Assembly: GCA_964480125.1 (NCBI GenBank)
Contig: CAYZNV010000002.1
Location: 4,984 to 68,983, forward strand
DNA length: 64,000 nt
Origin: an uncultured archaeon
GTDB taxonomy: Archaea > Iainarchaeota > Iainarchaeia > Iainarchaeales > VGJJ01
Reading direction: 5' to 3'
The position numbers were made by a program, and so were the translations under genes. The notes below the pieces were generated by a model. It had not been told where the DNA came from. It was given only the letters and a program-made list of their open reading frames with translations, and made no database searches. Within the stretch, counting starts at the first letter, position 1; each line of letters opens with the position of its first letter. Shown here in pieces: positions 33,030 through 54,518 of the stretch.

Positions 33030-33329
33030 TTATGCTTTCTTGGTAGTAACGGTTGCGACTTGTTCAGTCGTGGACTTTGTTCCGAGATTTCCACGTAATT
33101 GATCCAATTCCTTTCGGATCGCATTCTCATTGGAAATCATCGTCTTGGTGAGGCGTGCGTTCAATTTCATTAATTCCAAGTTCTTATCGCGCAGGCCAGA
33201 CACGCTCGTCATCAGCTGCTGGTTGGAATAACGGATTAAGTAGACAGCAACGGCAAGTTGCACGACGAATAAACCCAATGAAACGATCATTTCGGAGCTA
33301 ACCATAGTCTCACCACTACTCCAACCCAA
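33030..33329 (-). CDS. small single-TM coiled-coil protein, paralog 2
   Basis: 99 aa. Tandem paralog of 32748..33005. Confidence 0.4.
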   Translation of the reverse strand: MGWSSGETMVSSEMIVSLGLFVVQLAVAVYLIRYSNQQLMTSVSGLRDKNLELMKLNARLTKTMISNENAIRKELDQLRGNLGTKSTTEQVATVTTKKA

Positions 33330-36437: not shown

Positions 36438-36535
36438 TGAATCGCCTCAGTTAATCTGAATCCATGATTATGGATTTGGACATTAATAAATGAATGGGAA
36501 TTGTTCGGGCGAAGCCCGAAACAATCGACACTTAC

Positions 36536-38455: not shown

Positions 38456-39124
38456 TCAACGCACGACGACGGATTGATCCACGAATTGATGCAGCGAATC
38501 CAACACATTCTTGTGTTCGGCCGTATCCAGCGCGAGTAAGATCACAAGAGTGGAGGCGTTCCGGTTTTTGCTGATGACCGTGTGACAGAATTTCTCGACG
38601 GCCTGTGGGGAATTGTACACCAGCAGCGTGGAGACCGAATCAATGAATAGAAATTTTTTGTTGCTGACGATGTTTTGCATGTTCTCAGAGATGGCCATGT
38701 CCATCTCTACTAAAGCAAGTGGGGAGTCGAGATATTGTACGTTTGGAAGTTCAGTAAGGTCTTTTCCTGTGAGTGCGGTGACGACATCCACAAATTTTAT
38801 TCCAGAGAAAGGAGTATTTCCGCGAACGAGATCCAAGTAGGGCCGGTTCACGCACACATATACTCCGGGCACGTTATTTTGTGAAAAATAATCGATGACC
38901 GCGCGCGGGACGGATGCGTATTGTGAAGCGGGGACGACCATCAAAGCACTCGTTCCGGGAGCAAGTTGGGATAATTGTGCGGCGAGTTTTGACTCTTGTT
39001 CTTTTCCGGGCTTCAAGTAGTCCAATATCTTGTCATCGGACCACAACTGATTTCCCACTCCCTTCGTATCGGATGGCATGCATGAAGCACGAGAGTTGAA
39101 ACTAAAAACCTGCGGTTTTGCCAA
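38456..39124 (-). CDS. degenerate KaiC/RecA-fold paralog (Walker A lost: 'APGTSALMV'; Walker-B-like 'FLFIDSVSTLLVY')
   Basis: 222 aa. The fold-level similarity to the KaiC/FlaH-like gene at 39813 is my own judgement. Confidence 0.35.
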   Translation of the reverse strand: MAKPQVFSFNSRASCMPSDTKGVGNQLWSDDKILDYLKPGKEQESKLAAQLSQLAPGTSALMVVPASQYASVPRAVIDYFSQNNVPGVYVCVNRPYLDLVRGNTPFSGIKFVDVVTALTGKDLTELPNVQYLDSPLALVEMDMAISENMQNIVSNKKFLFIDSVSTLLVYNSPQAVEKFCHTVISKNRNASTLVILLALDTAEHKNVLDSLHQFVDQSVVVR

Positions 39125-39149
39125 GAAAAATAATTACGCAACTAGTGAA

Positions 39150-39201
39150 AGAAAAAAAACTGCAAAAAATAGAAAAAAAAAGAATGATGCCCTTGCGGGC
39201 A
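39150..39201 (-). terminator. hairpin ATGCCCGCAAGGGCAT followed by a long T-tract, downstream of the pilin gene
   Basis: On the minus strand: stop (39216), hairpin 39186-39201, then 'cattctttttttttctattttttgcagttttttttcttt'. Confidence 0.5.
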
Positions 39202-39215
39202 TGCATTCAACTGAT

Positions 39216-39680
39216 TTAGATCGTTCCGCGGCACTGAGCTGAGGCGGTCAAACCAGTTAGGTTTCCTGCGCTGTACGTCAAAGAGTATGTTAAGTTATAC
39301 GTACCCGAATTCAAATCGACTGCGGGGTCGACCGTGAAAGTAGCGGTTTCTCCTGCCGTCATCGAGGTAGGGGTTTCTGTTACTGCACCTGAAGTGTAGG
39401 TGCTAGCTCCACCGTGAGTTCCTGTCACGCTGAAGTCCATGGCGCTGACGCCTTGTCCGGTTTGGTTAACCAAAACCAATTGGGCGCTGCCAGCGGCGAT
39501 GTTGGACTGGGTAATAACGAAAGGACCCAGTTTGGAGTCGCACGTGTCTCCCTGAATGTTGCTTGGATTGATTAGAATGACCAACGCTGCAACTGCAATA
39601 ACAATAACGACCAAGGCCCAGCCATAAGTCATCAAGTATTCCAGCGCCGATTGGCCTCGAACACCAAATTTCATACGCAT
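39216..39680 (-). CDS. type IV pilin-like protein with class III (prepilin) signal peptide, candidate major pilin
   Basis: 'MRMKFGVRG|QSALEYLMTYGWALVVIVIAVAALVIL': basic N-terminus, RG cleavage motif, Q+1/E+5, then a hydrophobic helix. An AGGAGG SD lies 5 nt upstream. 154 aa. Confidence 0.7.
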   Translation of the reverse strand: MRMKFGVRGQSALEYLMTYGWALVVIVIAVAALVILINPSNIQGDTCDSKLGPFVITQSNIAAGSAQLVLVNQTGQGVSAMDFSVTGTHGGASTYTSGAVTETPTSMTAGETATFTVDPAVDLNSGTYNLTYSLTYSAGNLTGLTASAQCRGTI

Positions 39681-39812
39681 TCGCTCCTCCTTTCTTAGAA
39701 AGGTTAATGCTTAGCACGGAAAGGATTTGGACGTTTTAAAGGTTAAGTATACCGGAAACCAAAATGCCCCGATAAAACGGTTATAAACCGGCAAAGGTTC
39801 TATGGGAACCGA

Positions 39813-40511
39813 ATGCCAGCGATTACGACCATCGAACGCACCCCCACCGGAGTAAAGGGATTAGATGAATTGATTGAAGGGGGCGTGCCAAAAGGAGCGT
39901 TAGTCGCGTTGACCGGAGATCCGGGCGCGGGAAAGACTATTTTTTGCTTGCAATACCTTTACTCGGGAGCGATGCAGCACAATGATGTGGGAGTGTATCT
40001 TTCGCTGGAAGAAAAACCGGAAGAGCTCATTCAGACTGCCGCAGTATTTGGGTGGGATTACAATCCCCTCATCAAGTCAGGGAAAATTATCATGCAGACG
40101 ATTGAATTGTATGACTTTGATAAGTTACGCGACAGTATTGAAGACCTCGTGACGAAAAGCAAGGCCAAGCGCATGGTCATTGACCCCGGTGTCATTTTTC
40201 ATTTGTATTTTGAAAAAGAATTAGACGCCAGAAAGCGCATTCTTTCTTTGGGAAAGATGCTCAAGAAATTAGGCGTTACCACAGTCATCACCAATGAGAA
40301 TTCAACGCAACAAACGGGTTTGTTCGGCTTGGAAGAATATGTCGCAGATGGAGTCATCCTGTTGTATCACACCCGCATCGAGAACCGCTTCCAGCGCAGC
40401 GTGGGAATATTGAAGATGCGCGAGACAAAGATTTCCGACAAGCTACGACCGGTGCGCATCACGCAAGATGGGATGGAAATTTTGCCCAAAGAAGAATTAT
40501 TCAATGAATGA
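39813..40511 (+). CDS. KaiC/FlaH-like RecA-superfamily ATPase
   Basis: 'GVKGLDELIEGGVPKGALVALTGDPGAGKTIFCLQY' carries Walker A. 'MVIDPGV' is Walker B. 232 aa. Confidence 0.7.
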   Translation: MPAITTIERTPTGVKGLDELIEGGVPKGALVALTGDPGAGKTIFCLQYLYSGAMQHNDVGVYLSLEEKPEELIQTAAVFGWDYNPLIKSGKIIMQTIELYDFDKLRDSIEDLVTKSKAKRMVIDPGVIFHLYFEKELDARKRILSLGKMLKKLGVTTVITNENSTQQTGLFGLEEYVADGVILLYHTRIENRFQRSVGILKMRETKISDKLRPVRITQDGMEILPKEELFNE

Positions 40512-40570
40512 ATAAGCGCATTCTTTTTCGGTTTGGTCTCACAACTAACGCAGGCATGCGCGTGAAAGAT

Positions 40571-41593
40571 TTACTGATTCAATAGCAGGGGACCGAATGC
40601 CGCGTGCATGACGGCGCGTATCAGGAAAAATAATCCAAATGAAACGAGTAGCATGACGGGAAGATATTTCATTCCATCCTTTTCTTTTCCCGTAGCGATT
40701 GCGCCCAAAATAAGAGAAGCAAATACCCCTCCAACGAATAGCATGACTTGCGAAAAGAACACGATGAAATCAGGAGAGATGATACTGGCCTTTCCTCCCA
40801 CGAAACCACTTAATCCCGCAAATCGGCTCCCAGCAGAAGCGATAGCCCCAGGATCGACTGCGGGAGTGGCCCCTGTCTGCGCGGTCATCACTTCAACAAT
40901 GAAAGAGGACACCGCATAGAGTGCTGGCCCCCCGAACGCCGCAGAGAAGAAAATCAGAATGACATAAATGGAAATGGATGCGCTTGCCTCTGATTGTAAT
41001 GCCAGTTGCTTGCGCAGGTTATGCGAGAGCTGCATCAACAGATCCGCAATTTCTCCTCCAGAAGAAATTCCGCGTGCCAATAACCAAGTAGTACGCTCCA
41101 CAAGGGTTGACTTGAGATGTTTGGGAATCTCTAAAATCGCATGCTCCACGGGCGTGCCCGAATAGATTTTGGCCGAAACGCGTCGGAGTTCCGTTTCCAG
41201 TGGACCGAATTCGGGGCGTGCACTCATTAGCAGCGCGCGTTCCGTGGTGAGACCCGACTTGATGTTGCTCGCGATGAGTTGTAGCGCATCCGGAAGAATC
41301 GCTTCCACTTTCTTTCCGCGACCATCGGCAGAGAGATCCAATAACATGTACATGATCCCGATCATGCCGACGACCGTTCCGACTCCTGCGAGAATACTGA
41401 AGAGAATACCGAGATTGAAAGTGGTAATTCCCAAAAATATTGCAATGAGCCCAAGGACGAGGCTGAATATCAGGGTGTTCATCACATACTTGCGCGCTGA
41501 AATCTTCAATCCTAAATACATGAATTGTTTTTCGAATGCCGCGTAGATGCCGCGCAGGAATGGGAGTTCGATTCGGAATCCGGTCATGCGCAT
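40571..41593 (-). CDS. FlaJ/TadC-like polytopic membrane protein (T2SS-F domain)
   Basis: 340 aa with a TM pair, a cytoplasmic helical domain, then TMs again. It is operonic with the secretion ATPase. Confidence 0.6.
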   Translation of the reverse strand: MRMTGFRIELPFLRGIYAAFEKQFMYLGLKISARKYVMNTLIFSLVLGLIAIFLGITTFNLGILFSILAGVGTVVGMIGIMYMLLDLSADGRGKKVEAILPDALQLIASNIKSGLTTERALLMSARPEFGPLETELRRVSAKIYSGTPVEHAILEIPKHLKSTLVERTTWLLARGISSGGEIADLLMQLSHNLRKQLALQSEASASISIYVILIFFSAAFGGPALYAVSSFIVEVMTAQTGATPAVDPGAIASAGSRFAGLSGFVGGKASIISPDFIVFFSQVMLFVGGVFASLILGAIATGKEKDGMKYLPVMLLVSFGLFFLIRAVMHAAFGPLLLNQ

Positions 41594-42486
41594 CAGTCTC
41601 CCAGCAGAGAAGGGCGCTTGCTCTTCACGATTCCCATGTACATGAATTGGCCTATTCCCACAAAAGTGAGCAGAACCCAGAAATAGATATCCGTAATGGA
41701 AATCTGGGGGAATGAAGACAATACGATCAGGAACGTAATCCCGAGCGCTGGAACGATAACTCCTAACATCATGTACACGAGAGAAAGTATTTTCATCTGG
41801 CTCTCATAGTTTCGGATTTGGATGGATTGGGCATCCGTGAGCGAGTCCACGCTTTCAGAGAGGACTTGTGTGATATCTGCGCCGGCGCGCATTCCATTGA
41901 CGACTTGCCAGATGGTTCGGCGGAAATAGATGCTGGGATTGTTTTCCGCGATGCGTTCCAACGCTGCCTCTTGAATAGTTCCCGTATTGATTTGCTCTAC
42001 CGCCTTATGAAACTCTATCGAAACAGCCCCATAATTCCCCTCTGCTACCACTTTCATGGAATCGAAAAGACTGACACCTGAACGCAGTTGCACGAGCAGC
42101 GTGCGCAACGCAAACACGAGATTGCGATCCAAGTCGCGTACTTTCTTTTTGATTTGGATGATGGGGAATGCCACCAGTTGCACCATCACCAAAATACCAA
42201 AGACCCCACTGACCACTAGTGGAAGAATGGGATTGAGCGTCCCGAACACGCGGAAGCTGATCGTGTAGAACACCAAGAAGAAAAATACAAAATAGAATGC
42301 GATAATAACGAGGGACATCGTCGCATACTCTTTCGATGAAACTGGGATGTTGGCACGACGCATATCCGCATCCGAAACGGGAAAAACCTTCCCGAATTGC
42401 GCCCCCACTCCGATGAGTCGCTTGCTGGCCCAGCGCAGCATGGGCATGGGCAGCACATTGAGCGGCATGGAGAAGCGATAAATCAT
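41593..42486 (-). CDS. FlaJ/TadB-like polytopic membrane protein (T2SS-F domain)
   Basis: 297 aa with the same architecture. Its start overlaps the downstream gene by 1 nt. Confidence 0.55.
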   Translation of the reverse strand: MIYRFSMPLNVLPMPMLRWASKRLIGVGAQFGKVFPVSDADMRRANIPVSSKEYATMSLVIIAFYFVFFFLVFYTISFRVFGTLNPILPLVVSGVFGILVMVQLVAFPIIQIKKKVRDLDRNLVFALRTLLVQLRSGVSLFDSMKVVAEGNYGAVSIEFHKAVEQINTGTIQEAALERIAENNPSIYFRRTIWQVVNGMRAGADITQVLSESVDSLTDAQSIQIRNYESQMKILSLVYMMLGVIVPALGITFLIVLSSFPQISITDIYFWVLLTFVGIGQFMYMGIVKSKRPSLLGD

Positions 42487-42498
42487 CTTTTCACCGCC

Positions 42499-43989
42499 TC
42501 AACGAATCCCTGCTTTTTTGAAAATGGTCTCGGGATCCGAATAATATTGCGCGATGGCCTTCCCCACTTCGTTGATGTCACGGATTTTTTCGCGCATCAT
42601 GTATTCGAGCACGCGTTGTTTTTCCGCCAGATTCTGATTGATTTCTTGTGCCGTGTACCCGGTGTGCAGCGCCAATTCATCGAACAAACGAATACTTTCC
42701 GCGTATTTTTCGATTGTATCAGTTTGCGCACGCCAGCGGAATAAAATATTGGGTTTGAGCGTGGTCCCGCCTTGCGCGCCCGATTTCATGGGAACGAATT
42801 CTGCTAGCTGGAGAATTCTTCTCACCCCAAGTCGGCGATTGCGAAACATGACCGCATTCAAGTGCACCGCTTCCAATAGCGAGGGAGCGATTTCAATTGG
42901 AGGAGATGTCAAGCGCTGAATGGTTTCTTCCGCCGTGTTAGCGTGAACGGTAGCATAAACCGCGTGTCCGGTATGCATGGCTTCGAACATCACTTCGGCT
43001 TCTTTCTGCCTTCTTACTTCACCCACAATGATGCGGTCCGGGCGCATACGCAACGCATTCACGAGGAGATCCAGCATGGATATCTGTCCTTTGCCTTCTG
43101 CGTTTGGTTCGCGCGTGGTCATGGGAACCCAGTGCAAGAACTCTGGCAATTGCAGTTCGCGCGTGTCTTCGATTGTCAGCACGCGCTGGTTGGGTTGGAT
43201 GAAGGGCATCATCACATTCAGCAGCGTCGTCTTTCCGCTTCCTGTTCCCCCTGAGACCATGATGTTCAATTCGTATTCCATCGCCAACCAAATCAGCGAC
43301 ATTAGCTCTGCGCTCCCTGTCCCACCATTAATGAAATCCGTTACGGTCCATGGGTCGCGGCGAAAACGACGAATAGTAATCGTATTTCCGCGCGAAGAAA
43401 TGGGATGCAACGAAGCATTGGCACGATCCCCCGTAACGAGGTGGGCATCCAGCAGGGGATTCAGGATTGTGACTTGTTTTCCAACGCGACGCGCGATGAT
43501 GCTCGCATAGTTTTGGATCTCTGCTTCAGGGGAAATGAAGATGTTGCTTTTGAGCCAGCCATATTTCTTGTGGTACACCCACACAGGTTCTTCGGCGCTA
43601 TTGACTACAATTTCTTCGAGATTTCCATCATCCAGCATGAATTCGATGTAGCCTAATCCCACCATTTCGTGGATGATGACAGCAATCAGCTTGTCGCGTT
43701 GCTCTTTGGGAATCTCAGGGAGTTGTGTTTCCATGAGGCTTCGCGCCTTTGTGCGGAAATGACCTTTCATTTCTTCCACAAACTTTACATCCAGGAGTTT
43801 GTCCCCTGCCACATTCACGTCGGAGATGACTTTGCTCTTGAGGTTGTTGAGCATCGCCCGCGTTCCGGGACCGAACTCGGGAACGCGCAACATGTACCGC
43901 TTCACGAAGCCGGCTTCGTCATAGGTGATGTCCACTGCCACATCAATGTCGGACTTGATGGAATAGGACTCGATATTGCCTTGAAACAT
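42499..43989 (-). CDS. FlaI/TadA/VirB11-type secretion ATPase (type II/IV secretion system E family)
   Basis: 'MVSGGTGSGKTTLLNVMMPF' is Walker A. The Asp/His boxes and Walker B 'RIIVGEVR' are present. 496 aa. Confidence 0.85.
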   Translation of the reverse strand: MFQGNIESYSIKSDIDVAVDITYDEAGFVKRYMLRVPEFGPGTRAMLNNLKSKVISDVNVAGDKLLDVKFVEEMKGHFRTKARSLMETQLPEIPKEQRDKLIAVIIHEMVGLGYIEFMLDDGNLEEIVVNSAEEPVWVYHKKYGWLKSNIFISPEAEIQNYASIIARRVGKQVTILNPLLDAHLVTGDRANASLHPISSRGNTITIRRFRRDPWTVTDFINGGTGSAELMSLIWLAMEYELNIMVSGGTGSGKTTLLNVMMPFIQPNQRVLTIEDTRELQLPEFLHWVPMTTREPNAEGKGQISMLDLLVNALRMRPDRIIVGEVRRQKEAEVMFEAMHTGHAVYATVHANTAEETIQRLTSPPIEIAPSLLEAVHLNAVMFRNRRLGVRRILQLAEFVPMKSGAQGGTTLKPNILFRWRAQTDTIEKYAESIRLFDELALHTGYTAQEINQNLAEKQRVLEYMMREKIRDINEVGKAIAQYYSDPETIFKKAGIR

Positions 43990-44066
43990 GACCGAAAAAA
44001 GGAATTGGAGGTTATAAGTGCTATGGGAAAGGAAATTGAATCAGCCAAGGGATGCACTGCAACGCT

Positions 44067-44939
44067 TCACGAGGCGTTCTTGAAATAAATAATGGGTTCG
44101 CCGAACGCGGGATAGCGCACCTCGATCAGGCCATTATCTTCGAGCGTCTGCAGTTCTTCTGCGATTTTTTCTTCGTTCATCGCAAGGCGTTTCGTCAATT
44201 CATCCAGCTTAATGCTCTTCTGCAAGCGCACGATGTCTAGAATGCGATCAAAATTAGTGACAATGGCATTTGGAGAAGAAGGAATGGGAATCTCAACCCG
44301 TGCAGGGGTGGAAGTAGTAGCCACAACAGGAGAAGGTGTCGCAGTAGGAGGCCGCGCAGAAGGAGTTGGAAATTTTACTGGGGTTACGGGTGGTTTTGCA
44401 GGAGAAGCAGGTGCCGTATTGAGTGGCTTTATTACTGGCGCAGAGGGCTTTGACGCAGGCAGTGGAGCAGAAGGAAGGGGAGTAGAAGCATGTGGTGGAG
44501 CAGGCGATACAGCAGCCGAAGGTGATGGGTTCGATTTAATCCATGGAGCAGGAAAGGGCCACACTGCATTTGGAGAAGAGGAAGAAGTGGCACTTTTAGG
44601 CAGGGGCGAGCGCGCGGGAGTAATCGCAGGTGTTGTACGCGGGGAAGGTGGAGTGGAGATAATCGGCTCTGCGCGTGAGGGAGTAGGGGTAACAGCGGTT
44701 CGAGATAGTGGAATAGTTGAAGCCGGCATAACCGCTCGGCGCGCCTCGGGGATGACATAAGGCTTTCCGGCATAGGCGGGAGGAAGTGTGGGAGCGGGCT
44801 CTCCGTCGGAAAGTGACACGGGGCGTGGCGCGGGAGTAACAGGGGTCAACGTTGAAGGAGGAGTGTCAGGAAGCTGATGCAAGTGCAGAATGCGCGAGAG
44901 CGCACTGATGACGCCTGATTTGGGCTTTTCGGGGGACAT
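44067..44939 (-). CDS. Pro/Thr/Ala/Ser-rich low-complexity protein with C-terminal winged-helix domain
   Basis: About 200 aa of PT-rich linker, then 'ILDIVRLQKSIKLDELTKRLAMNEEKIAEELQTLEDNGLIEV'. Confidence 0.4.
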   Translation of the reverse strand: MSPEKPKSGVISALSRILHLHQLPDTPPSTLTPVTPAPRPVSLSDGEPAPTLPPAYAGKPYVIPEARRAVMPASTIPLSRTAVTPTPSRAEPIISTPPSPRTTPAITPARSPLPKSATSSSSPNAVWPFPAPWIKSNPSPSAAVSPAPPHASTPLPSAPLPASKPSAPVIKPLNTAPASPAKPPVTPVKFPTPSARPPTATPSPVVATTSTPARVEIPIPSSPNAIVTNFDRILDIVRLQKSIKLDELTKRLAMNEEKIAEELQTLEDNGLIEVRYPAFGEPIIYFKNAS

Positions 44940-44966
44940 ACCAACGTGAGCAACGCGTTTGAGTAT

Positions 44967-46097
44967 TTAAGTCGCATTCCCTGCAACCTCGACTCCACGC
45001 GTGGGGTCGCTCAAATTGCCCGAAAAATCTTTTGCGCGCACAGTATAGAGGAGCGATTCTGCCGCAGAAGGTAAAACATACTGCGTGGCAGTCACTTCTG
45101 CAAGTATGGAGTAGGTAATGAATTGTTGTGAGCCAAAATTTTGGCGATAAATCACATACCCACTTACATCACCGGAAGAGCTCGCATCCCAGCGCAGGAC
45201 TGCAGAGTCATCCTCTTGTGTTACTCGCACATTAGTCGGAGGAGTTGGGGAAATATCATCGAACGCGATGGCCAACGGAAATGTTTGAGTGGTGGAACCA
45301 AGTAAGGTGTTTGGATTTCCTTCTGGAGTAATGGAATATAGTTTGGCACCAATGCGTGCAGAACGAATGGGGAGTACAACCGTTGCTTGTGTGGTGTAAC
45401 TCGCAGAAGGAGCAACAGAATCCAAGCGCACTTGTTGGGGCACTGAAGCTAGTAGATTTTCGGCATTGTCATATACATCCACGTACACCAAAAATAAACC
45501 ATCTGCCGCAACTGAGGAATTATTTTGTAATGGAATGCTGACTTGTGCCGTGCTCCCTTGGATTACAGAAGCGAGTATTCCGATGTTGAATTGCAATGCA
45601 GAAGAAACACACTGCGTGGATGCACATATTTTTCCGGATGGACACCCACAAGCAGTGCAATTATCCACCAACTTCCCATTCACGCACTGTTGTGGTGGAA
45701 GCGAACACGCGCCATCTTTCGTTCCGTCGAGGCATCGAATCAGCGTATCCGTGACGGCAATCCCACGAGTGAATGCATAGTCATTCACGCGCAAAGATAG
45801 GGGGTGGACCCCTGGACGAGAAAAGACGTGCGTAAAAATCAATTGACATGGATTGGTTGAACAAGGCTGTGTAAGAGTGGCGTCATCGATTGCCAGCGCA
45901 ACGGTTGTTCCTTGGCCATTTGATATGGTAATGGAAACGGAAATCTCATCCCCTACACGTGCAGCAGAAGGCGTTTGCCACTCCACTTGCGGGATTGAAA
46001 TGCTTTGTTGTGTGGGCTGTTGCGTATAGAGGTAATACCCACCCACAAAAAGAGCAACAAGCCCGATTGCCAAGAAAAGTGTTTCGCTTGCATTCAT
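44967..46097 (-). CDS. membrane-anchored secreted protein with Cys-rich module and C-terminal FN3-like domain
   Basis: N-terminal TM. 'CLDGTKDGACSLPPQQCVNGKLVDNCTACGCPSGKICASTQC'. 'PTPPTNVRVTQEDDSAVLRWDASSSGDVSGYVIYRQ' is FN3-like. Confidence 0.45.
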   Translation of the reverse strand: MNASETLFLAIGLVALFVGGYYLYTQQPTQQSISIPQVEWQTPSAARVGDEISVSITISNGQGTTVALAIDDATLTQPCSTNPCQLIFTHVFSRPGVHPLSLRVNDYAFTRGIAVTDTLIRCLDGTKDGACSLPPQQCVNGKLVDNCTACGCPSGKICASTQCVSSALQFNIGILASVIQGSTAQVSIPLQNNSSVAADGLFLVYVDVYDNAENLLASVPQQVRLDSVAPSASYTTQATVVLPIRSARIGAKLYSITPEGNPNTLLGSTTQTFPLAIAFDDISPTPPTNVRVTQEDDSAVLRWDASSSGDVSGYVIYRQNFGSQQFITYSILAEVTATQYVLPSAAESLLYTVRAKDFSGNLSDPTRGVEVAGNAT

Positions 46098-47083: not shown

Positions 47084-47088
47084 GCCCA

Positions 47089-50000
47089 TCATCCTCGGAT
47101 CCATGCCCAGTAATCGAGCGTGAAAAACTGGGTCTGTGGGCGCGAATAGCAATAGATGAAATCCTGATTGTTGTTGCTACATTCGGGGATGGTTCCGCTT
47201 GGATTCACCACGGCAAACAAATCCCCTTCAGCTGGGACATTCTGCACAAACGTATAGCTAGAGGCTAAGCACCCTGGAGATTGTGAACCACACAAGAAAG
47301 GAATGGATTGCGACCCCACCAGCGTCGAGGGAGAAGGATTGCCGCGATAGAATTCCACGTTGGTATTGTTCGTGTCCAGCGTGCCGTGGCTGACGACCTT
47401 AACGGTGAGATCCACATTGTTAGTGCTTATTAGATTGCCAGACTGGATGTCCACATTCAAGTCGCGGTAATTGAATGCAGTGGTGATGAATTCATTCCAG
47501 TCCTTGGTTTGAGGATTACCATTCGAGTCCAGGTATTGGAATTGAGTAGTGCTCCCAGGAACGGATAACAACGTTGAGCTGCATGCTAGTGCCGTCGTGC
47601 AGGGGATGTTGAACGTATAGCTTGATACCCATGGCTGCGGTGCCAGCGTGTTGATGTCGAAGATAATCCCATTCCCCACTAATACCCCGTTTCCATCATC
47701 CACGATGACCGTTCCGCTGTTGAAACTGGTATAGATGTTTGCATCTTGCGCAATCACTTGAATAGTTTGCGCAATCAGCTGGTAAACCGCGCTTAAAGCG
47801 TTCTGATCAGCCGCATAATAATATTGTCCCCCCGTGAGATTTGCGATGTTCGTCAGCTCTGTCGCATCCGCGTCTTCACCGAAACCAATGGTGTAGATGA
47901 TAATCCCATTATTGCTGGCAGTGATGGCAGCAGTAGAGGAGTTTGCTCCCATGTTGGTGAGGCCATCTCCCATTAGAATCTGGAACTTGAGCGCGGAAGG
48001 ATTTGAATATCCCCCGTATGTGATGAAGCGCGCATCCCATCCTGATTGCGCAGTCGTGTTCTGGTATGCCTGTCCATTAGAATAGGGATTGCTCGAGCTT
48101 GCACCCCATTGATAGTAGTTCGAAGCATTGTCCGTTGCCGTGGTCGCAGCAAGATAGTATGTCACTCCTGGACTGACAGCCGTCGTACCAAAATTGGCCG
48201 TGACCAGCGCGTACGTAGTTCCAACCGAAGAAGAAGGAATAGATACGCTGGAGATTGGACTCCCAGAAATGCTCGAGCGCAATTCGAGGACAAGCGGGGA
48301 GGCAGGATTTCCCACTCTCCGGATATAGACATCCGCGCGCGTGAAATAGGGAAGGACCGGTTGATAGGATTGCACGGCGGATTGATTGCTTGAGTTCTGT
48401 CCGATGTAGAGGCTCTGGTTTTGGCTTCCAGAATTGCTAACATCCGTTTGGGACATACTGAAATGCGTCGTGGCTGTATTGATTCCTTCCCCGACAGCCG
48501 TCCCCCCGCTAGCAACAAGATTGCTTACGGATGTCTTCACGGAAGAATAGGTTCGGGTAAGGGATTGATTCAGTGTAGCGCTACTCGAAAAACTAACTAA
48601 CCCTAATTGGTCGTTCGAACTATTCCACCCATTGAAATCGATGAAAGTATTTGCGGATAACTTGGCTTGGTTCAGTTTGGGGCCCACTCGCAGATCGATT
48701 GTGATGAGGCCCGGAATTCCTGAGTCGACGGCGATGTAGGCCCAGTCCCCTTGCACCTCGAGATCGCGATAACTGTAGGGAGTAGCAAAACTATCCACTA
48801 GCACAGGAGATGCTGGAGATGAAATGTTTACGACTTGTAATGAGCTGTCATCTGCAATGATCGCATTGGTGTCCTTGAGACGCACCGTGTAAGCTGTGCC
48901 GGGAGTATTGTATGTTCCCACTAGCGTAGGAGAGGCAGGATTTGAAATATCCACCACTCTCATTCCTTGCGAACCATTTCCGACATACGCGTAACTCCCT
49001 GAAGGCCAGACATCATAGGTGGTGCCACTCGCGATATTACATCCTCCAGTATTGTAGCAATTTGCAACGACGCTGGGTTGCTGGGGATTGGCAATATTGA
49101 ATATGCGAAATCCATTTGTGCCATTTGCCGCATAAGCATAATCTCCTTGCAGGGTGACGTGATAGGGATCTTCTAGCGGAGACGCCCCAATCACACGCGG
49201 AGATGATTTGGTGCTCGTATCCACCACGACTAATCCCGCAACATACTGCGTGCGCAGATACGCATCCCATGTTTGGGATGTAGTATTTTGGTAGGCTTGC
49301 CCTCCAGAATAGGGGTTGCTGCCGCGGGCCTTCCACTCATAATAGTTGGAGTTGCTGTTTGAAGGAGTGGTGAGCACGATGAAATAAGTAGTGCCGCTCG
49401 TGAGCGGAATGACTCCTGAAAAATTCACGTCTACGTAGGCTCCGCTGGAAGATGTTCCAACGGAAGAAGCGGGAATTGTGATTGTATTCAAGTCGCTTCC
49501 AGAAATACTCGTGCGCAAGTGCGCCGTGATGTCTGGAGGACTCCCAATTTTACGCAGGCGCACTCCAAAGCCCGTAATGAAATCCACTCCAGGAGTGAAT
49601 GACTGCCCTCCACTCGCTTGGGAAGAGGTTCGACCGATGTAGATGTTTTGATTTGGACTCCCATTCGTGGTCGTTTCGACATCTTGGGAAGAAGAAGAAA
49701 ACGTCGTGACATACGTGATCGTGTCCCGGCTCGTCACACCATAAGCAGTCCCTCCCACATCGAGTTGCGCAGCAGAAGAGGGTGATGATTTTGTGGTCAC
49801 ATTCACGATGCGCAATCCTGAACTTCCGTCCGCGAGATAGGCATAATTGCCATTTACGTCCACATCGTTTGCCGTCCCGGGAGAATTATAAGTTCCAACT
49901 AGCAGTGGCAGTCCCGGACTATCGATGTTGACATCGCGCAGTCCTGAAGTTGAATCGGCCAAAAATGCATAGTTCTGATCCACTTCCACTCCTAAAGCCG

Positions 50001-50724
50001 ACGTCGAATTCAGTTGCCCGCCCCAACTCATGCTTCCGGAGCGATCGAAAACCAACATCATGTCGACTGGTCGTCGTGTTCCCGAGTTCGTTGTGACGGT
50101 GAGAGAGACGGTGATGTTCTGATCGCACGTCAAAGGACCAGCTGGAAAAATATTCACATCAAAATTGATGTTGGCATCCTCTGCGAAGGCAAGACTTGGG
50201 GTGTAAGGTGAATAGATTCCACTCTTGCGCGGGGAAAGCCCTCCCGTGCATTGCGAGGAAGGTTGTTGCTTGAGGAAAATCCTCCTCCCATGAACGAATG
50301 GAGCAGAGGACGGAAGCGTCGTTCCATAGGTCAATGCCGTGCGATTGGCATCGGGAAAACAAGTGGTAAAGTCTTGCGCGGATTGGCAGGAGTTCACATC
50401 AACAGGATAGCTGGTAAGTTCCACATACAAATCATATTGAGGCGGGAGAAGCGTGCGAATATAGGAATAGATGTTTTGCAATGTTGCGGAAGAAAAACCA
50501 TTGATGTCGATTTCACTCGAAACAAATCCGGAGTGATCCATAGCAAGAAAAATATCATCGACATATTGATCGGCAACGCGTCTTTCTTCCAAGAAAGAAG
50601 TGGGTTGGTTCGGCAAAGAAATGAGTAGCGCAACAGATGAAACAAGGATTAGAGCCAATACCACATCGGCACTGAAGGCAAAACCCCTCGGAGGAGTAGG
50701 AGATAATGAGTAGTCATGCAACAT
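47089..50724 (-). CDS. giant prepilin-leader adhesin with two vWA-like modules and LVIVD beta-propeller repeats
   Basis: N-terminus '...TPPRG|FAFSADVVLALILVSSVALLI'. 'MMLVFDRSGSMSWGG' is a vWA MIDAS DxSxS motif. The repeats 'GNYAYLADGSSGLRIVNV' and 'YAYVGNGSQGMRVVDISNP' are LVIVD-like. A second vWA-like region carries 'GGTAVGEGINTA'. 1211 aa. Confidence 0.6.
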   Translation of the reverse strand: MLHDYSLSPTPPRGFAFSADVVLALILVSSVALLISLPNQPTSFLEERRVADQYVDDIFLAMDHSGFVSSEIDINGFSSATLQNIYSYIRTLLPPQYDLYVELTSYPVDVNSCQSAQDFTTCFPDANRTALTYGTTLPSSAPFVHGRRIFLKQQPSSQCTGGLSPRKSGIYSPYTPSLAFAEDANINFDVNIFPAGPLTCDQNITVSLTVTTNSGTRRPVDMMLVFDRSGSMSWGGQLNSTSALGVEVDQNYAFLADSTSGLRDVNIDSPGLPLLVGTYNSPGTANDVDVNGNYAYLADGSSGLRIVNVTTKSSPSSAAQLDVGGTAYGVTSRDTITYVTTFSSSSQDVETTTNGSPNQNIYIGRTSSQASGGQSFTPGVDFITGFGVRLRKIGSPPDITAHLRTSISGSDLNTITIPASSVGTSSSGAYVDVNFSGVIPLTSGTTYFIVLTTPSNSNSNYYEWKARGSNPYSGGQAYQNTTSQTWDAYLRTQYVAGLVVVDTSTKSSPRVIGASPLEDPYHVTLQGDYAYAANGTNGFRIFNIANPQQPSVVANCYNTGGCNIASGTTYDVWPSGSYAYVGNGSQGMRVVDISNPASPTLVGTYNTPGTAYTVRLKDTNAIIADDSSLQVVNISSPASPVLVDSFATPYSYRDLEVQGDWAYIAVDSGIPGLITIDLRVGPKLNQAKLSANTFIDFNGWNSSNDQLGLVSFSSSATLNQSLTRTYSSVKTSVSNLVASGGTAVGEGINTATTHFSMSQTDVSNSGSQNQSLYIGQNSSNQSAVQSYQPVLPYFTRADVYIRRVGNPASPLVLELRSSISGSPISSVSIPSSSVGTTYALVTANFGTTAVSPGVTYYLAATTATDNASNYYQWGASSSNPYSNGQAYQNTTAQSGWDARFITYGGYSNPSALKFQILMGDGLTNMGANSSTAAITASNNGIIIYTIGFGEDADATELTNIANLTGGQYYYAADQNALSAVYQLIAQTIQVIAQDANIYTSFNSGTVIVDDGNGVLVGNGIIFDINTLAPQPWVSSYTFNIPCTTALACSSTLLSVPGSTTQFQYLDSNGNPQTKDWNEFITTAFNYRDLNVDIQSGNLISTNNVDLTVKVVSHGTLDTNNTNVEFYRGNPSPSTLVGSQSIPFLCGSQSPGCLASSYTFVQNVPAEGDLFAVVNPSGTIPECSNNNQDFIYCYSRPQTQFFTLDYWAWIRG

Positions 50725-51244
50725 ACAAGGTCACGGTCACGGTTGTCTCAATTCCATTCACGGTCACAAAACGTCGTACGACGCTCGATTGCACGGATCC
50801 GATAGGCATCAACCCCATCGAGAGATTCGCTCCACCAGTGAATTCGATGTAATAGTTAAAATGACTGAGCCGTAATTTCTCGCGCACGAGGTAATAGTCG
50901 GTATTTCCCAGGTTGACGAATGCCACGACTTTGTCAGGGTCCAGTACACGATCCCGAATCGCCAAGCCAAAGAATTGCACAGCGTTGTAGTCGGAGAGAG
51001 ATTCCCAGTCAACAGGGGAACCGGGATTTTTCACGAGATATTCAGCCACATTGGCGGCAGTAGTGTCAAGTGTTTTGCGTTCGAATTGTCGTTCGGTCGC
51101 ACCCTCAATCGAGCCTTGGAAATAAAATATGCCGGCAATGATGATCATGAATAATGTAACCGCAAACATCACATCTGGAATCGCCGCTTGAGCACGCGAA
51201 GAGCGGAGCGCATAGCAAGGTGAGAAGTCGGAACGCATGTGCAT
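50714..51244 (-). CDS. prepilin-leader-like small protein ('SRA|QAAIPDVMFAVTLFMIIIAGIF')
   Basis: 176 aa with an RAQ motif followed by a hydrophobic helix. It is operonic (11-nt overlap). Confidence 0.4.
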   Translation of the reverse strand: MHMRSDFSPCYALRSSRAQAAIPDVMFAVTLFMIIIAGIFYFQGSIEGATERQFERKTLDTTAANVAEYLVKNPGSPVDWESLSDYNAVQFFGLAIRDRVLDPDKVVAFVNLGNTDYYLVREKLRLSHFNYYIEFTGGANLSMGLMPIGSVQSSVVRRFVTVNGIETTVTVTLYVA

Positions 51245-52414
51245 TCACCCAAACACCCGCTGCGCCACCACATTTCCAATGGGGTTCACAAGGGTTGCGG
51301 TGACCGTTCCGCCTGACCAGAGCGTGCTCGGAGAATTCAAGTAGATACGCGTGGTCGTATTGGTTCCCGTCCCCGTATGCACGCGCGCAGATCCATCCAA
51401 GATAAACGGATCAGGAAAAGTGATGAGTGGAATCCCATCCCTCAAGAGCGAAAAACCAGATAACTCCAACGACTGCAACGCAGTGAATTCGAGGAACTCA
51501 TTTTGGATATTGCGTTCATCGAATTCAGTCTCGGTAATCACAATCAGGGGTTGCCCAAACGCATCGAATCCTGGATTCACATACCCACAGTCAGCGCTGA
51601 AATAAAGGGGAAGAATTTCATACGCACATCCCTCGTCCGTGCAAAAGTAATTTTGCCATATTTTTGTCGTGGAAGAGCAAGTGTAACTGTCGGCAGGACA
51701 TTGTGCGATTACGCAGGCATTCCCACTGCCAGAACCCCCGACGGAGAGTTCGTTGTCAGAAAGTATTTCTTCTTGAGTGGACTGTGAAGAAAAAGCACTT
51801 GACTCGTTCTGCCAGAGGCGAGAGAAGAGGGATTTGAATAATTCTCGTTCAGTCTCGGTGCGGAGCACGCGGAGACTGGCAGTTCCCTGGGCATTTGTGT
51901 CGGTATTATTTCCAACGAGCTCCGACGTTGCGTCTACGTGCACAAAATTCGTGGCCACAAAATTATTCACGGATTTCACTCGAACGGTCGCGCCTTCAAG
52001 GAAAAACTTAGGATTAAGCGAAGCATCGAGGATGAGCTCCACCTTCACCCCTCGCTTGATGGCCGCGCGCAAGTGGTCGCGAAATATTTTGGGGGCAGGA
52101 GTCCGGAGCACGGCCTGGATTCGTTGCGTAGCAGAATCGATGTGAGTGAGCACCTTTTCGAGACAGTCGGCTTGGGCACAATCGTACGTGACCGCACACT
52201 GCGTCAACGCAATGGATCGCGCCTGATCAGGAGGAATAGTATTTACTTCATTCACTGGCTCTGGGGACGCGACATTCGGCACGATTACCGGAGCGGGTGG
52301 AGGAGAGGGAAATACGATGATAAGTGCAATGGCTAATAGAATCAAGACGAACGGTCCCAGCAACCATTGGAACTGAAATCGTATGGGTGGATTGAGGGAA
52401 TCAGATGAAGGCAT
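51245..52414 (-). CDS. membrane-anchored secreted protein (N-terminal TM), Cys-containing
   Basis: 389 aa with a hydrophobic N-terminus 'WLLGPFVLILLAIALIIVF'. The leader is less canonical. It is operonic (1-nt overlap). Confidence 0.35.
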   Translation of the reverse strand: MPSSDSLNPPIRFQFQWLLGPFVLILLAIALIIVFPSPPPAPVIVPNVASPEPVNEVNTIPPDQARSIALTQCAVTYDCAQADCLEKVLTHIDSATQRIQAVLRTPAPKIFRDHLRAAIKRGVKVELILDASLNPKFFLEGATVRVKSVNNFVATNFVHVDATSELVGNNTDTNAQGTASLRVLRTETERELFKSLFSRLWQNESSAFSSQSTQEEILSDNELSVGGSGSGNACVIAQCPADSYTCSSTTKIWQNYFCTDEGCAYEILPLYFSADCGYVNPGFDAFGQPLIVITETEFDERNIQNEFLEFTALQSLELSGFSLLRDGIPLITFPDPFILDGSARVHTGTGTNTTTRIYLNSPSTLWSGGTVTATLVNPIGNVVAQRVFG

Positions 52415-54000
52415 CAGGTCACCACCAAATTGATGTTGTCGATATAAATCCCCACTCCCTCATTGGAAAGATCCCAGTCCGATAGCGCCCCACCAAATTC
52501 CAGGTAATAACTTCCGCTGCCGCTGACGAGGGAAGCGATATCTTGAATAAAGAATTGAGTTGTATCCGTTGGAGTGTCGGAGAACCATATTTCGGGAGAT
52601 GCATCCCCATCATCATCACTCGCGTCTTGGGCAGATCCAAGGAAGGTCATCCCGCCATTATTGCCGAAGCGCGCTTTTACCCAAACCTCTTCTCCAGCAT
52701 CTGCCGCATTACCCCATCCTGCATCCGCATCGATAGAGTACGCGAAGCTCAATAGCAATTGTTCTCCCCCCTGTATGCGCGACCACATCGTGGAATTGAT
52801 GTCCACTTGGATCCCATACGCACCAGATGCGGCCGCGCCGACAAATGCATTGTCATCCGGCAGCGCCCCAGCAGAAGGCGCTCCTCCACCCATGCGAAGT
52901 TGCAGTTGCTGGTTGAGTGGAACATTCGAATCGGAAATGCTCCCATTGCCATTGGGATCCACGTTGAATTGGACGGCTTCCGAAAATGTCCCACCATACG
53001 TCCCCGCGGACCAATCCCATCCATCGTTTCCGGCATCAGCTCCGAAGGTATTAGCAATGCTATTGACATCCGATCGGAAATCGAGTGGTTGGGGCAAGTC
53101 TGCTCGCATTTCCCACAAGTCCACCGTCTGGCCAATAGAAAGGAAGTTCACATCCAATCGACCATAGTCAATCGAGATAAATGAACCTGAACCATTGGGC
53201 TCATACGTCATGCGAATGCGCGCATTGTTGGCGAGATTGTAATCCGTGATGCAACTTGAGAGGTTGGGACTTTGATAAAGTGCTTCCGTGTAGCTGGGAA
53301 CATAAGCCTCGATGTCCAACCAGGTTGTTCCATTCCAACACTGAATGCGGCGCAAGTTTTCGGATAACCCGATGAGGTTGCCTTGCAGGTGTTTGATGAA
53401 GACACTCACATTCGTAATGGTATTAGCCGGAGTCAGACCCAGATTTGAGAACCGAAACTCCACCCAGTCCGGGTCCACCAGTTGATCGTCCGCGGAGTTT
53501 GCGTAAGAGACATCATCCGCCTGCACCTCGGTAGACCATATTTGGCCCTGATCGTCCGTTAGCAGAACAATGCCAGCAGTAACATTCGAATTGGATGCAG
53601 GAACTTGAATGGGGGGATTGAGAGGAGAATAATTCAAATCATTCGTGAAAATGATGAGCCCATTCACGTCAAAGGCTTTTATGATTCCCCGCGACAAGGA
53701 AACATTCGCCACATTCCCCAAGAAAGGACAAATGCGATCGCCCACAAAAATAACCCCAGAAACGATGTTAGTATCATATTCCAATTCCAAGCGCGTTTCC
53801 GTGTAGGGAGGATTTGAGCTCATGTAGGTGATGATTGAAGAGAGCTTGGTACAAATCCCTTCTTCTTGGAGGTTTCCCTGCAGCGCACGATTGGATACGC
53901 TGCGCGTATGGATAAGGAGGAGCACCACGACAAAGACTAATAACAAAATAAGGATGCTCAGAAGGATTTCAGTCGCCACTTGGGCACGCGTTGCATTCAT
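52414..54000 (-). CDS. large prepilin-leader protein ('MNATRA|QVATEILLSILILLLVFVVVLL', E+5)
   Basis: 528 aa. Class III-like leader with Q+1/E+5, followed by a large beta-rich extracellular domain. Confidence 0.45.
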   Translation of the reverse strand: MNATRAQVATEILLSILILLLVFVVVLLLIHTRSVSNRALQGNLQEEGICTKLSSIITYMSSNPPYTETRLELEYDTNIVSGVIFVGDRICPFLGNVANVSLSRGIIKAFDVNGLIIFTNDLNYSPLNPPIQVPASNSNVTAGIVLLTDDQGQIWSTEVQADDVSYANSADDQLVDPDWVEFRFSNLGLTPANTITNVSVFIKHLQGNLIGLSENLRRIQCWNGTTWLDIEAYVPSYTEALYQSPNLSSCITDYNLANNARIRMTYEPNGSGSFISIDYGRLDVNFLSIGQTVDLWEMRADLPQPLDFRSDVNSIANTFGADAGNDGWDWSAGTYGGTFSEAVQFNVDPNGNGSISDSNVPLNQQLQLRMGGGAPSAGALPDDNAFVGAAASGAYGIQVDINSTMWSRIQGGEQLLLSFAYSIDADAGWGNAADAGEEVWVKARFGNNGGMTFLGSAQDASDDDGDASPEIWFSDTPTDTTQFFIQDIASLVSGSGSYYLEFGGALSDWDLSNEGVGIYIDNINLVVT

Positions 54001-54404
54001 GTGTTGGTCACGCTTGCATTGGTATCTGTCATGCTCACCTGCAAACGATAAAATCCCTCTTCGAAGTACAATTGCTGCGGCGTCACTCGCGCGCGAGTAA
54101 ATGCAAATACCGAGGTGCTCCCCCCAACAGGTGGGAGAAAAGTCATCAGCACATAATTCTGATCCACCAAGAAAGTGGTCACGGAAGAAGGCAGTTTGAC
54201 ATCAATGAGCACGGTATTTCCTGGACCTTTAGCATACACGAAATCCACTGCATTTGCTACTTGATCGACAACGGATTGTCCTTGGGTGACTTGAATCGTC
54301 GTCGAATAGGAGATGAAAGAGTACGCAAAAAGAATCACTGCCACTCCCATCAGAAAAGCCGTGAAGACAATATACTCGAATGCCACTTGGCCGCGCGGAT
54401 GCAT
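53997..54404 (-). CDS. pilin-like protein with class III signal ('MHPRG|QVAFEYIVFTAFLMGVAVIL')
   Basis: Start at Met25 of the track ORF. A TATA 'ctttttatt' (revcomp of 54428-54436) lies about 27 bp upstream. First gene of the operon. Confidence 0.5.
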   Translation of the reverse strand: MHPRGQVAFEYIVFTAFLMGVAVILFAYSFISYSTTIQVTQGQSVVDQVANAVDFVYAKGPGNTVLIDVKLPSSVTTFLVDQNYVLMTFLPPVGGSTSVFAFTRARVTPQQLYFEEGFYRLQVSMTDTNASVTNT

Positions 54405-54518
54405 GTGATGCAAGCAGCAAAACCGCCAATAAAAAGCAAGCACGCAAAAGAAGTGAAATCGCCCCCAATCCCCCATCCAGCCGCATTAAATAGCCCCTTG
54501 CTTATGTATATTCATTAG

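Follow-up and report, generated by a model that had tools for sequence, protein, structure and literature searches.

A phylum-conserved type IV pilus locus with predicted modular pilin-like adhesins in a Candidatus Iainarchaeum archaeon

The 64,000-nucleotide stretch of archaeal DNA analyzed here (the window) carries, between positions 38456 and 54404, a set of 14 genes that very probably (we put the probability at roughly 85%) encodes a type IV pilus (type IV filament) system carried on the chromosome of a Candidatus Iainarchaeum (DPANN) archaeon and conserved across its phylum. The system comprises one major pilin and five pilin-like proteins, two of which bear large adhesion-type modules, and it is not an archaellum hybrid. 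Domain identities, conserved leader peptides, synteny and predicted folds support this assignment directly. The original prediction for this DNA was a type IV pilus/Tad-like filament locus, and its central elements are all present: the locus has a major pilin, a platform split in two, an ATPase of the VirB11/T2SSE family and an operon encoding proteins with class III leaders. Every gene that it named was recovered at its expected position. The features are listed below; the arrow marks the predicted leader cleavage position and aa stands for amino acids.

g14, 53997-54404, minus strand: pilin-like protein of 135 aa whose gene opens the operon, leader MHPRG↓QVAFEY (motif test)
g13, 52414-54000, minus strand: 528-aa predicted modular pilin, leader MNATRA↓QVATE, with a pilin module and two beta-sandwich modules resembling carbohydrate-binding modules (CBM-like)
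g12, 51245-52414, minus strand: bitopic membrane protein with a phospholipase D-like (PLD-like)/TrmB-C-like domain and a possible lamin-tail-like C terminus
g11, 50714-51244, minus strand: small pilin-like protein, leader ...SSRA↓QAAIPD (motif test)
g10, 47089-50724, minus strand: 1211-aa predicted modular pilin-like adhesin, leader PPRG↓FAFSAD
g09, 46094-47104, minus strand: pilin-like Cys-rich protein, leader ...REKG↓ILFTFL, no acidic residue at +5 (motif test)
g08, 44967-46097, minus strand: surface protein anchored by an N-terminal transmembrane (TM) helix, with Ig/PKD-like and Fn3-like domains
g07, 44067-44939, minus strand: cytoplasmic protein, proline-rich and of low complexity in its N-terminal region, with a C-terminal winged-helix-like domain
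g06, 42499-43989, minus strand: pilus assembly ATPase of the T2SSE/VirB11 superfamily
g05, 41593-42486, minus strand: platform protein, N-terminal half (TadB-like)
g04, 40571-41593, minus strand: platform protein, C-terminal half of a FlaJ/PilC/UpsF-type protein (TadC-like)
g03, 39813-40511, plus strand: single-domain KaiC-family ATPase, divergent from the pilin gene
g02, 39216-39680, minus strand: major pilin candidate, 154 aa, leader MRMKFGVRG↓QSALEYLMTYGWAL (class III motif test), own transcription unit
hairpin and oligo-T tracts, 39140-39202, minus strand: directly 3' of g02, stem ATGCCCGCAAGGGCAT at 39202-39187, then T10, T6 and T8
g01, 38456-39079, minus strand: DUF7504 protein with a degenerate KaiC/RecA-like domain

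The open reading frame (ORF) listing and translations define a co-directional minus-strand train from g14 to g04 (54404 down to 40571), beyond which lie the plus-strand g03 and then the minus-strand g02 and g01. Overlaps of 1-11 nt had been reported for g14 to g09; the packing is indeed tight, and the actual values are 4 nt (g14/g13), 1 nt (g13/g12), 0 nt (g12/g11), 11 nt (g11/g10) and, for g10/g09, anything from a 16-nt overlap to a 5-nt gap, set by which g09 start is used. Further along, g09 and g08 overlap by 4 nt, and gaps of 27, 77 and 12 nt separate g08/g07, g07/g06 and g06/g05, respectively, before a 1-nt overlap of g05 with g04. Junctions within the operon from g14 to g07 thus range from -16 to +27 nt.

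A GTDB genome scan assigned the window to Candidatus Iainarchaeum, of the Iainarchaeota (formerly Diapherotrites; DPANN). The genome nearest to it, CP064981.1, is a complete 1.05-Mb chromosome whose ATPase is 98% identical, in keeping with the reduced-genome host that had been suggested, and an identical ATPase sequence occurs on three metagenome contigs with gene order unchanged. We assembled approximately 80 related loci and ran every locus protein against them by tblastn. The order g14-g13-(g12)-g11-g10-g09-(g08)-g07 C terminus-ATPase-platform N-half-platform C-half is kept across Iainarchaeota, including AR10. Comparison with other DPANN genomes, a check that the original prediction had proposed, showed a core shared with Aenigmatarchaeota and Woesearchaeota, which retain an ATPase of 52-55% identity along with the pair of platform genes and the N terminus of the pilin; the g07 C-terminal domain is also kept in several of their loci. 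The pilin adjoins the platform genes in related loci, often on the other strand. Base composition is uniform over the locus, with no break in the profile. We consider the locus to be ancestral chromosomal equipment rather than an island, because gene order and core genes are conserved across the phylum and beyond and composition is uniform; the even profile and the phylum-wide synteny argue against a mobile-element origin, which we rejected. Scans of the window for tRNAs and Rfam families were both empty. N-glycosylation sequons reach 1.6-1.9 per 100 aa in g02, g08, g09, g10 and g13, versus 0-0.8 in cytosolic proteins, a density that argues for a surface location of these five products.

The assembly core is well defined. 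The g06 product matches T2SSE (PF00437, E 8e-39) and carries the four catalytic motifs: Walker A GGTGSGKT, Asp box IEDTREL, Walker B IIVGEVR and His box TGHAVYATVH. The Pfam check therefore upholds the VirB11/FlaI-type ATPase originally called here. Its top Protein Data Bank (PDB) match is Archaeoglobus fulgidus GspE (2OAP, 2e-69), with FlaI (1e-51) and CpaF (1.5e-50) behind, and it falls under the NCBIfam cut-offs for FlaI (290 vs 550 bits), the TadA family (TIGR03819, 201 vs 373) and BasE (146 vs 1000). The two membrane genes likewise proved T2SSF-like, as anticipated: g05 and g04 each contain a single T2SSF domain (PF00482, 8e-15 and 1e-13), map to positions 34-237 and 257-423 of the single-chain UpsF model (484 positions), and are conserved in 79 and 75 related loci. 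By this mapping, they are equivalent to the N- and C-terminal portions of a PilC/FlaJ-type platform, a division also seen in TadB/TadC.

The pilin-like proteins were recognized by their leaders. We applied a FlaFind-like rule ([KR][GA]↓x within the first ~40-60 residues, then a strongly hydrophobic 16-mer) to the 144 window ORFs of at least 100 aa, 14 of them in the locus and 130 elsewhere. It was passed by g09, g10, g11, g13 and g14, and g02 was added with a slightly longer hydrophobic window. Leaders are strongly enriched in the locus (6/14 genes vs 1/130 other ORFs, Fisher p = 2e-6). When N termini of orthologs from the related loci were compared, every leader family was found to retain its own signature in its 17-53 orthologs:

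g02: [KR]G↓Q(S/A)ALEYLMTYGWAL, nearly invariant across DPANN (53 related loci)
g14: [KR][GA]↓Q..(L/V)EY (32 orthologs)
g13: [KR][GA]↓Q(V/I)S.E
g11: [KR]G↓Q....D (33 orthologs)
g10: [KR][GA]↓FAFS.(D/E)
g09: [KR]G↓(I/V)(L/F)F(T/S), without an acidic residue (39 orthologs)

The claim that each protein of the operon begins with such a leader therefore needs qualification: the five proteins listed for it and the 154-aa pilin pass and their orthologs conserve the motif, but g12, within the run, and g08, next downstream, do not carry it. A candidate seventh class III protein (35343-36437) passed the motif test in the window and was rejected, as its orthologs do not conserve the motif. The description of the minor-pilin set as unusually large did not hold, since several minor pilins, as well as large proteins predicted to be tip adhesins, are part of published models of archaeal type IV pili (T4P; PMC4858521).

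Several features single out g02 as the candidate shaft subunit. GGAGG lies 7 nt 5' of its ATG (39680), and a TTTAAAA element is found ~50 nt upstream. The Shine-Dalgarno sequence and the hairpin/T-tract terminator noted earlier are thus both in place, the ATGCCCGCAAGGGCAT hairpin with its long T runs being a probable transcription terminator. The C-terminal half of the protein gives a weak Ig-like match (Big_13, E 7e-4), and the whole protein has three N-glycosylation sequons. UniRef names two g02 orthologs as class III signal proteins. The gene is usually single-copy and, in most of the longer loci compared, lies beside the genes for the platform.

Database links for the pilin-like proteins are weak. 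Even at permissive thresholds, g02, g09, g13 and g14 show no direct match to a pilin family in Pfam or NCBIfam, and family-wide scans give weak links only: Class_IIIsignal (PF04021) is matched by 7/27 members of the g14 family (best E 6.1e-6), and DUF7287 is matched near full length by 8/29 members of the g11 family (best E 6.9e-6). The g09 family, which has conserved cysteines, comprises 138 clusters among 1.84 billion representatives, mostly beginning at query residue 8, with no Pfam or PDB match. Because orthologs begin at that position, the true g09 start is probably the ATG at 47083, giving the leader MREKG. In bacterial type II secretion system (T2SS) pseudopili, the tip subunit GspK is the one without an acidic +5 residue; by analogy, the missing acidic residue of g09 is suggestive of a GspK-like position.

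The two largest pilin-like proteins have the most distinctive architectures. Pfam confirmed the expected VWA and LVIVD domains in g10 (LVIVD 9e-37; VWA 1.6e-11, in two separated pieces). In the AlphaFold2 model of this protein (mean predicted local distance difference test [pLDDT] score 84.5), the leader and a hydrophobic helix are followed by a helical/alpha-beta module to residue ~200 (precursor numbering), partly at low confidence. Next come the first VWA strand with the metal ion-dependent adhesion site (MIDAS) motif DRSGS (227-231), propeller blades (~236-358), a jelly-roll (~359-493), further blades (~497-677), the mid-VWA segment (~683-756), a second jelly-roll (~759-905) and the end of the VWA domain (~912-992), before C-terminal beta-sandwiches. 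The D-x-S-x-S of the MIDAS, plus its T and D, is invariant in 44 homologs. The two jelly-rolls (~350-489, 761-899) represent an internal duplication (score 319 vs 42 +/- 8 for shuffles). Homologs range from 905 to 1350 aa and vary in Pfam annotation, some bearing DUF4082; we infer that jelly-roll inserts account for these length differences. In g13, the model shows a 59-residue N-terminal helix packed on a small sheet, which constitutes the pilin module, followed by the CBM-like modules. The structure check proposed for both proteins thus found the sought N-terminal pilin helix in g13; for g10 it yielded the hydrophobic helix after the leader, with the adjoining module only partly resolved. 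The outer (C-terminal) modules of g13, a lectin-like pilin by prediction, appear to vary between lineages. The idea of pilus-presented adhesins gains substance from these folds, which equip the large proteins with a MIDAS-bearing VWA domain, a beta-propeller and jelly-rolls of CBM-like type.

PilY1 of the type IVa pili of Pseudomonas and Neisseria combines a vWA domain with a beta-propeller, lacks a leader of the pilin kind and is carried by minor pilins. The vWA domain of PilY1 is the subject of PMC9210963. The likeness to g10 lies in this pairing of domains within a large pilus-associated adhesin encoded together with minor pilins; the differences are that g10 has its own class III leader and that its propeller is LVIVD-type and nested within the VWA domain. 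A Foldseek search of the PDB with the g10 model returned generic beta-propellers (DDB1, Tako8), with no PilY1 among the 50 matches listed, and g10 has no match to the PilY1 Pfam family. Homology to PilY1 was rejected on the Foldseek result, and we regard g10 as a probable analog of PilY1, not a homolog. A second parallel is found in Streptococcus sanguinis, whose PilB (vWA) and PilC (lectin), like g10 and g13, unite a class III leader, a pilin module and grafted binding modules (PMC8179133). The archaeal proteins share the three hallmarks of modular pilins (leader, pilin module and non-pilin module), with an intact MIDAS in g10, but have no sequence relationship to the streptococcal ones. The S. 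sanguinis modules are simply appended, whereas the VWA domain of g10 is split by the nested propeller and jelly-rolls, and its 1211 aa compare with 860 aa for the largest modular pilin in the bacterial survey (Raynaud et al. 2021, PMC8179133). The bacterial modular vWA pilin has been proposed to sit at the pilus tip (PMC8179133).

Three further proteins of the train lack pilin features. In g07, conservation centers on the last ~65 aa (TDFDRIL...LEDNGLIEVxYPAFGEP), which are found just 5' of the ATPase gene in 41 loci from Iainarchaeota, Aenigmatarchaeota and Woesearchaeota and give weak winged helix-turn-helix (wHTH) matches (MarR, TrmB, TFIIE_alpha, ArsR; E 1e-3 to 1e-2). On the three metagenome contigs, public gene callers chose an antisense ORF here (44212-44760, plus strand), which we rejected because only the minus-strand C-terminal wHTH is conserved; the public annotation at g07 is probably on the wrong strand. 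The g08 product, weakly conserved in 23 loci, has ten Cys and six sequons, and it shows a weak PKD match together with a match to the Fn3-like region of the CbhB model. The g12 product matches Regulator_TrmB (E 3.6e-5), PLDc_2 (0.005) and LTD (0.1). Its HKD motif is degenerate (HVD, read from the translation), and a conserved juxtamembrane motif, RF(E/Q)xKWLxGP, has no G/A at -1; the gene was found in only 10 loci, all from the closest relatives.

A KaiC/FlaH-like ATPase in the locus had been taken to indicate a non-canonical hybrid with the archaellum, that is, a FlaH-type ATPase recruited to a pilus locus and forming a rotary or otherwise unconventional machine. A RecA/KaiC-superfamily ATPase, g03, does adjoin the pilin and platform genes, and FlaH is itself KaiC-like. 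The protein (Pfam KaiC 1e-58, Walker A GDPGAGKT) scores best, however, as KaiC: NCBIfam gives 169 bits for bacterial KaiC and 147 for KaiC_arch_3, compared with 44.9 for ArlH (NF052589, cut-off 215) and 35-41 on FlaH models (cut-offs 194-215), and PDB matches run from KaiC (3e-56) through PH0186 (2e-37) to FlaH 4WIA (6e-6). The FlaI score of g06 is likewise far below its cut-off, as noted above, and the platform, split over two genes, is not single-chain ArlJ (16.5 bits vs 400). Among the window ORFs scanned, no archaellin, ArlF/ArlG (FlaF/G) or FlaX-type family was matched. KaiC-family ATPases (arCOG01171, 01174, 01175) are strongly linked both to the archaellum and to non-archaellar pili of clade 2 and subclade 4B, and a pair of tadC genes is typically found in euryarchaeal clades 1 and 2 (PMC4858521). 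The hybrid inference therefore fails, because g03 is not FlaH and KaiC genes are ordinary at non-archaellar pilus loci; we assign this explanation next to no weight.

The other KaiC-related protein, g01, is a likely companion of g03. It matches DUF7504 marginally (27.2 bits vs cut-off 27), and hhalign aligned the g01 and g03 families over 123 columns (probability 89%, E 2e-6), yet no Walker A (GxxGxGK[ST]) was found in g01. Its start is most likely 39079, not the TTG at 39124. Where a locus contains the two genes, they are in most cases direct neighbors, sometimes a few kb off the ATPase gene. We predict that g03 is a regulator and that g01 is its partner.

Together, these components suggest how the filament might be built, with leader cleavage, polymerization, tip location, module ligands and all regulatory roles as predicted elements. 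The six precursors (g02, g09, g10, g11, g13, g14) would enter the membrane, where a class III signal peptidase encoded elsewhere would cut their short basic leaders after [KR][G/A]. Hexameric g06 would work via the heterodimeric g05/g04 platform to pull pilins from the membrane and polymerize them. Abundant g02, with its own promoter region, Shine-Dalgarno sequence and terminator, would build the shaft, and g14, g13, g11, g10 and g09 would form a low-abundance priming or tip complex. By displaying the VWA/MIDAS and beta-propeller of g10 and the carbohydrate-binding-like modules of g13, this complex could make the filament an adhesion organelle. In the cytoplasm, g03, with g01 as its degenerate partner, and the winged-helix g07 product may act as regulators or adaptors that modulate assembly or expression.

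The peptidase had been predicted to lie outside the window, and our searches agree. Pfam Peptidase_A24 has no match in the window ORFs tested, including all multi-TM ones, which are CarS, DUF92, Rce1-like, Yip1, the two platform proteins and one unassigned 172-aa protein. Mia14, another DPANN archaeon, has one FlaK-like peptidase, whose gene lies apart from its pilus loci (PMC5498576), and by analogy the Iainarchaeum enzyme must presumably act in trans. Several observations nonetheless weigh against the pilus assignment. A crude motif test found no GxGD multi-TM ORF in the 64-kb window or in the flanks of the ~80 related loci. The major pilin candidate g02 matches no Pfam pilin family and no PDB pilin; g08 and g12 have an N-terminal TM helix in which the class III motif was not found; and parts of residues 1-170 in the N-terminal module of g10 have pLDDT values of 31-60. 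The tip location and the identity of the ligands are argued by analogy, and the filament is at present a prediction from genes.

Two other functions for the same machinery have to be considered. Class III signals in archaea also occur on non-pilin surface proteins (PMC4858521), and two of the proteins found here are very large (528 and 1211 aa) and consist mostly of binding-type modules, so that the machinery might, as the Sulfolobus bindosome does for sugar-binding proteins, build a short pseudopilus or membrane-proximal scaffold anchoring g10 and g13 with no long pilus. The dedicated, highly conserved small pilin with strong expression signals speaks against this, as does the low BasE score of the ATPase, and a scan of the locus genes found neither solute-binding-protein domains nor genes for an ABC transporter; we consider such surface display unlikely. 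Alternatively, the filament could be a pseudopilus for protein secretion or for the uptake of environmental DNA that would supply an auxotrophic DPANN cell with nucleotides, rather than for adhesion. Bacterial type IV filaments do both, pilus-mediated DNA uptake has been proposed for ultra-small prokaryotes (PMC9938205), and the PLD-like domain of g12 is weakly similar to the nuclease NucT (E 0.05-0.17) and is accompanied by a possible lamin-tail domain. We rejected g12 as an extracellular PLD nuclease on account of its degenerate HKD and its confinement to close relatives. No ComEC, DprA or PilT-type retraction ATPase was matched among the window ORFs scanned, and the conserved large modules are of adhesion type (VWA/MIDAS, propeller, CBM-like); a role in uptake or secretion thus appears very unlikely.

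Returning to the adhesive pilus, we tentatively raise a more specific possibility, to which we give well under even odds: that g14-g13-g11-g10-g09 might be an archaeal counterpart of the bacterial minor-pilin/PilY1 priming complex in which the adhesins are fused to pilins. The set would include g10 as a VWA(MIDAS)/propeller pilin, g13 as a lectin-like pilin with swapped modules and g09 as a cap, with the variable modules setting the choice of host or surface.

The architecture of the locus matches published euryarchaeal T4P models and leaves the known picture of archaeal type IV pili unchanged. It most resembles Clade 2 T4P, typified by the Haloferax volcanii PilB/PilC loci (PMC4858521): both have a VirB11/T2SSE ATPase gene followed by two tadC-like genes, an association with the KaiC family, a PilA-like major pilin (possibly a stand-alone gene) and a set of FlaFind-positive minor pilins, there 250-550 aa with beta-rich domains. 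This likeness is one of gene order and content, with the top PDB match of g06 to GspE 2OAP and the weak DUF7287 link of the g11 family as indirect pointers. The Clade 2 ATPase clade already holds a few Nanoarchaea, and pilins of arCOG02416, arCOG02911 or arCOG03926 are a mark of Clade 2 (PMC4858521). The published Clade 2 model has no counterpart of the 1211-aa pilin-like protein with VWA and LVIVD domains or of the wHTH protein conserved directly upstream of the ATPase, and four pilin-like proteins of the present locus (g02, g09, g13, g14) match no Pfam/NCBIfam pilin model directly. Shared with the Epd pili of Methanococcus maripaludis and Clade 1 (PMC4858521) are the two platform genes, several Q+1 Class_IIIsignal (DUF361) minor pilins and large proteins, there predicted to be PilY-like tip adhesins. 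Those predicted adhesins carry DUF2341, in contrast to the VWA and LVIVD domains found here, and the EppA and FleN/MinD ATPase often present in Clade 1 were not detected in this locus.

Bacterial Tad/Flp systems resemble the locus in their separate TadB/TadC-like half-platforms and in an ATPase of the same superfamily branch, to judge from the CpaF match of g06. They use a short Flp-type pilin, whereas the major pilin here has 154 aa and a C-terminal domain, and g06 stays well below the TadA-family cut-off. No secretin (RcpA), TadZ or TadV-type family was matched among the window ORFs scanned. Tad systems also contain a large VWA-containing pseudopilin, TadG, which invites comparison with g10 (PMC4858521). 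The Sulfolobus bindosome (Bas) is defined by BasE and by solute-binding proteins with class III signals, neither of which we found among the locus genes scanned. Closer in lineage are the cluster 2 DPANN T4P-like loci (Hamm et al. 2024, PMC11291902), DPANN islands (PMC6393860) and Mia14 (PMC5498576), which have in common with the present locus a CpaF/TadC/PilA core and a reduced genome. Their accessory "dark matter" proteins have signal peptides, and a host-interaction role has been proposed for them (PMC6393860, PMC5498576, PMC11291902). Cluster 2 loci carry coiled-coil sigma-1-like proteins (PMC11291902), in place of which the Iainarchaeota locus has the g14-g13-g11-g10-g09 set; the lineages that Hamm et al. 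list do not include Iainarchaeota (PMC11291902). Archaeal T4P loci that combine a tadC pair with KaiC and large tip adhesins (PMC4858521) and DPANN pilus loci with unrecognizable pilins (PMC6393860, PMC5498576, PMC11291902) have thus been published already. We did not find the Iainarchaeota pilin set itself (the nested VWA/LVIVD/jelly-roll protein, the CBM-like pilin, the g09 family and the wHTH protein) described, and databases call most of the locus proteins hypothetical, with some g10 homologs named "VWA domain-containing protein."

The flanks of the locus contain further genes of potential interest. Divergent from g14 lies one that is syntenic with it:

g15, 54519-55100, plus strand: transglutaminase-like (DUF553) protein (E 5e-5, 23.2 bits vs cut-off 20.5)

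It is adjacent and divergent to g14 in ~20 Iainarchaeota loci and has no obvious signal peptide; its membership in the pilus system is uncertain. Just downstream of the locus (35343-37189, minus strand, and 37252-38445, plus strand) are three genes whose conservation at this position is confined to the closest relatives. Their products, none of which matches Pfam, are a Cys-rich secreted protein of 217 aa, a 364-aa protein with an N-terminal anchor and a helical, charged protein of 397 aa. The 364-aa product contains KA↓SS, but this motif is not conserved as a class III site. On the same strand as the pilus locus and ~3 kb downstream of it, 33316-35277 (minus strand) encodes a secreted protein of 653 aa that has a YtkA-like domain (E 1.5e-6) and a high sequon density, 1.5 per 100 aa.

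Elsewhere in the window, 59070-62909 (plus strand) encodes a large surface protein of 1279 aa with a lipobox-like N terminus (LLLLIVAGC) and no Pfam domain. A 180-aa membrane protein (470-1012, minus strand) belongs to the exosortase/archaeosortase family (TIGR04178, 45 bits vs cut-off 23); the nearest subtypes, ArtD and ArtE, both score under their cut-offs. This protein suggests sortase-type C-terminal processing of some surface proteins in the organism. The 289-aa product of 55157-56026 (plus strand) matches the N-terminal ~165 of the 645 positions of the archaeal RqcH model (95 bits vs 400) and may be a short or truncated RqcH-like (ribosome rescue) protein. The ATP-binding N-terminal domain of pyruvate phosphate dikinase/phosphoenolpyruvate (PEP) synthase and the PEP-utilizing mobile domain are encoded by separate, divergent genes (2638-3597, minus strand, and 3627-5462, plus strand), the latter specifying a 611-aa product with a long N-terminal region without a Pfam match.

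In the studies consulted here, what is known of how ultra-small DPANN archaea recognize hosts or surfaces and attach to them rests largely on genomic inference and microscopy, and an episymbiotic lifestyle is presumed for the organism studied here. For one DPANN phylum, Iainarchaeota, the locus provides a conserved, well-delimited candidate attachment apparatus, together with experimental handles: the near-invariant N terminus of the major pilin, the VWA/MIDAS and propeller protein, and the lectin-like pilin with varying outer modules. Public annotation is corrected for proteins labeled hypothetical and for g07, probably miscalled on the opposite strand. The concept of modular pilins, set up in Gram-positive bacteria, is extended to archaea. 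The main value of the locus lies in its candidate adhesive tip complex; if the possible correspondence to the bacterial priming complex were true, the locus would be a host-recognition device of a cluster 1 DPANN lineage.

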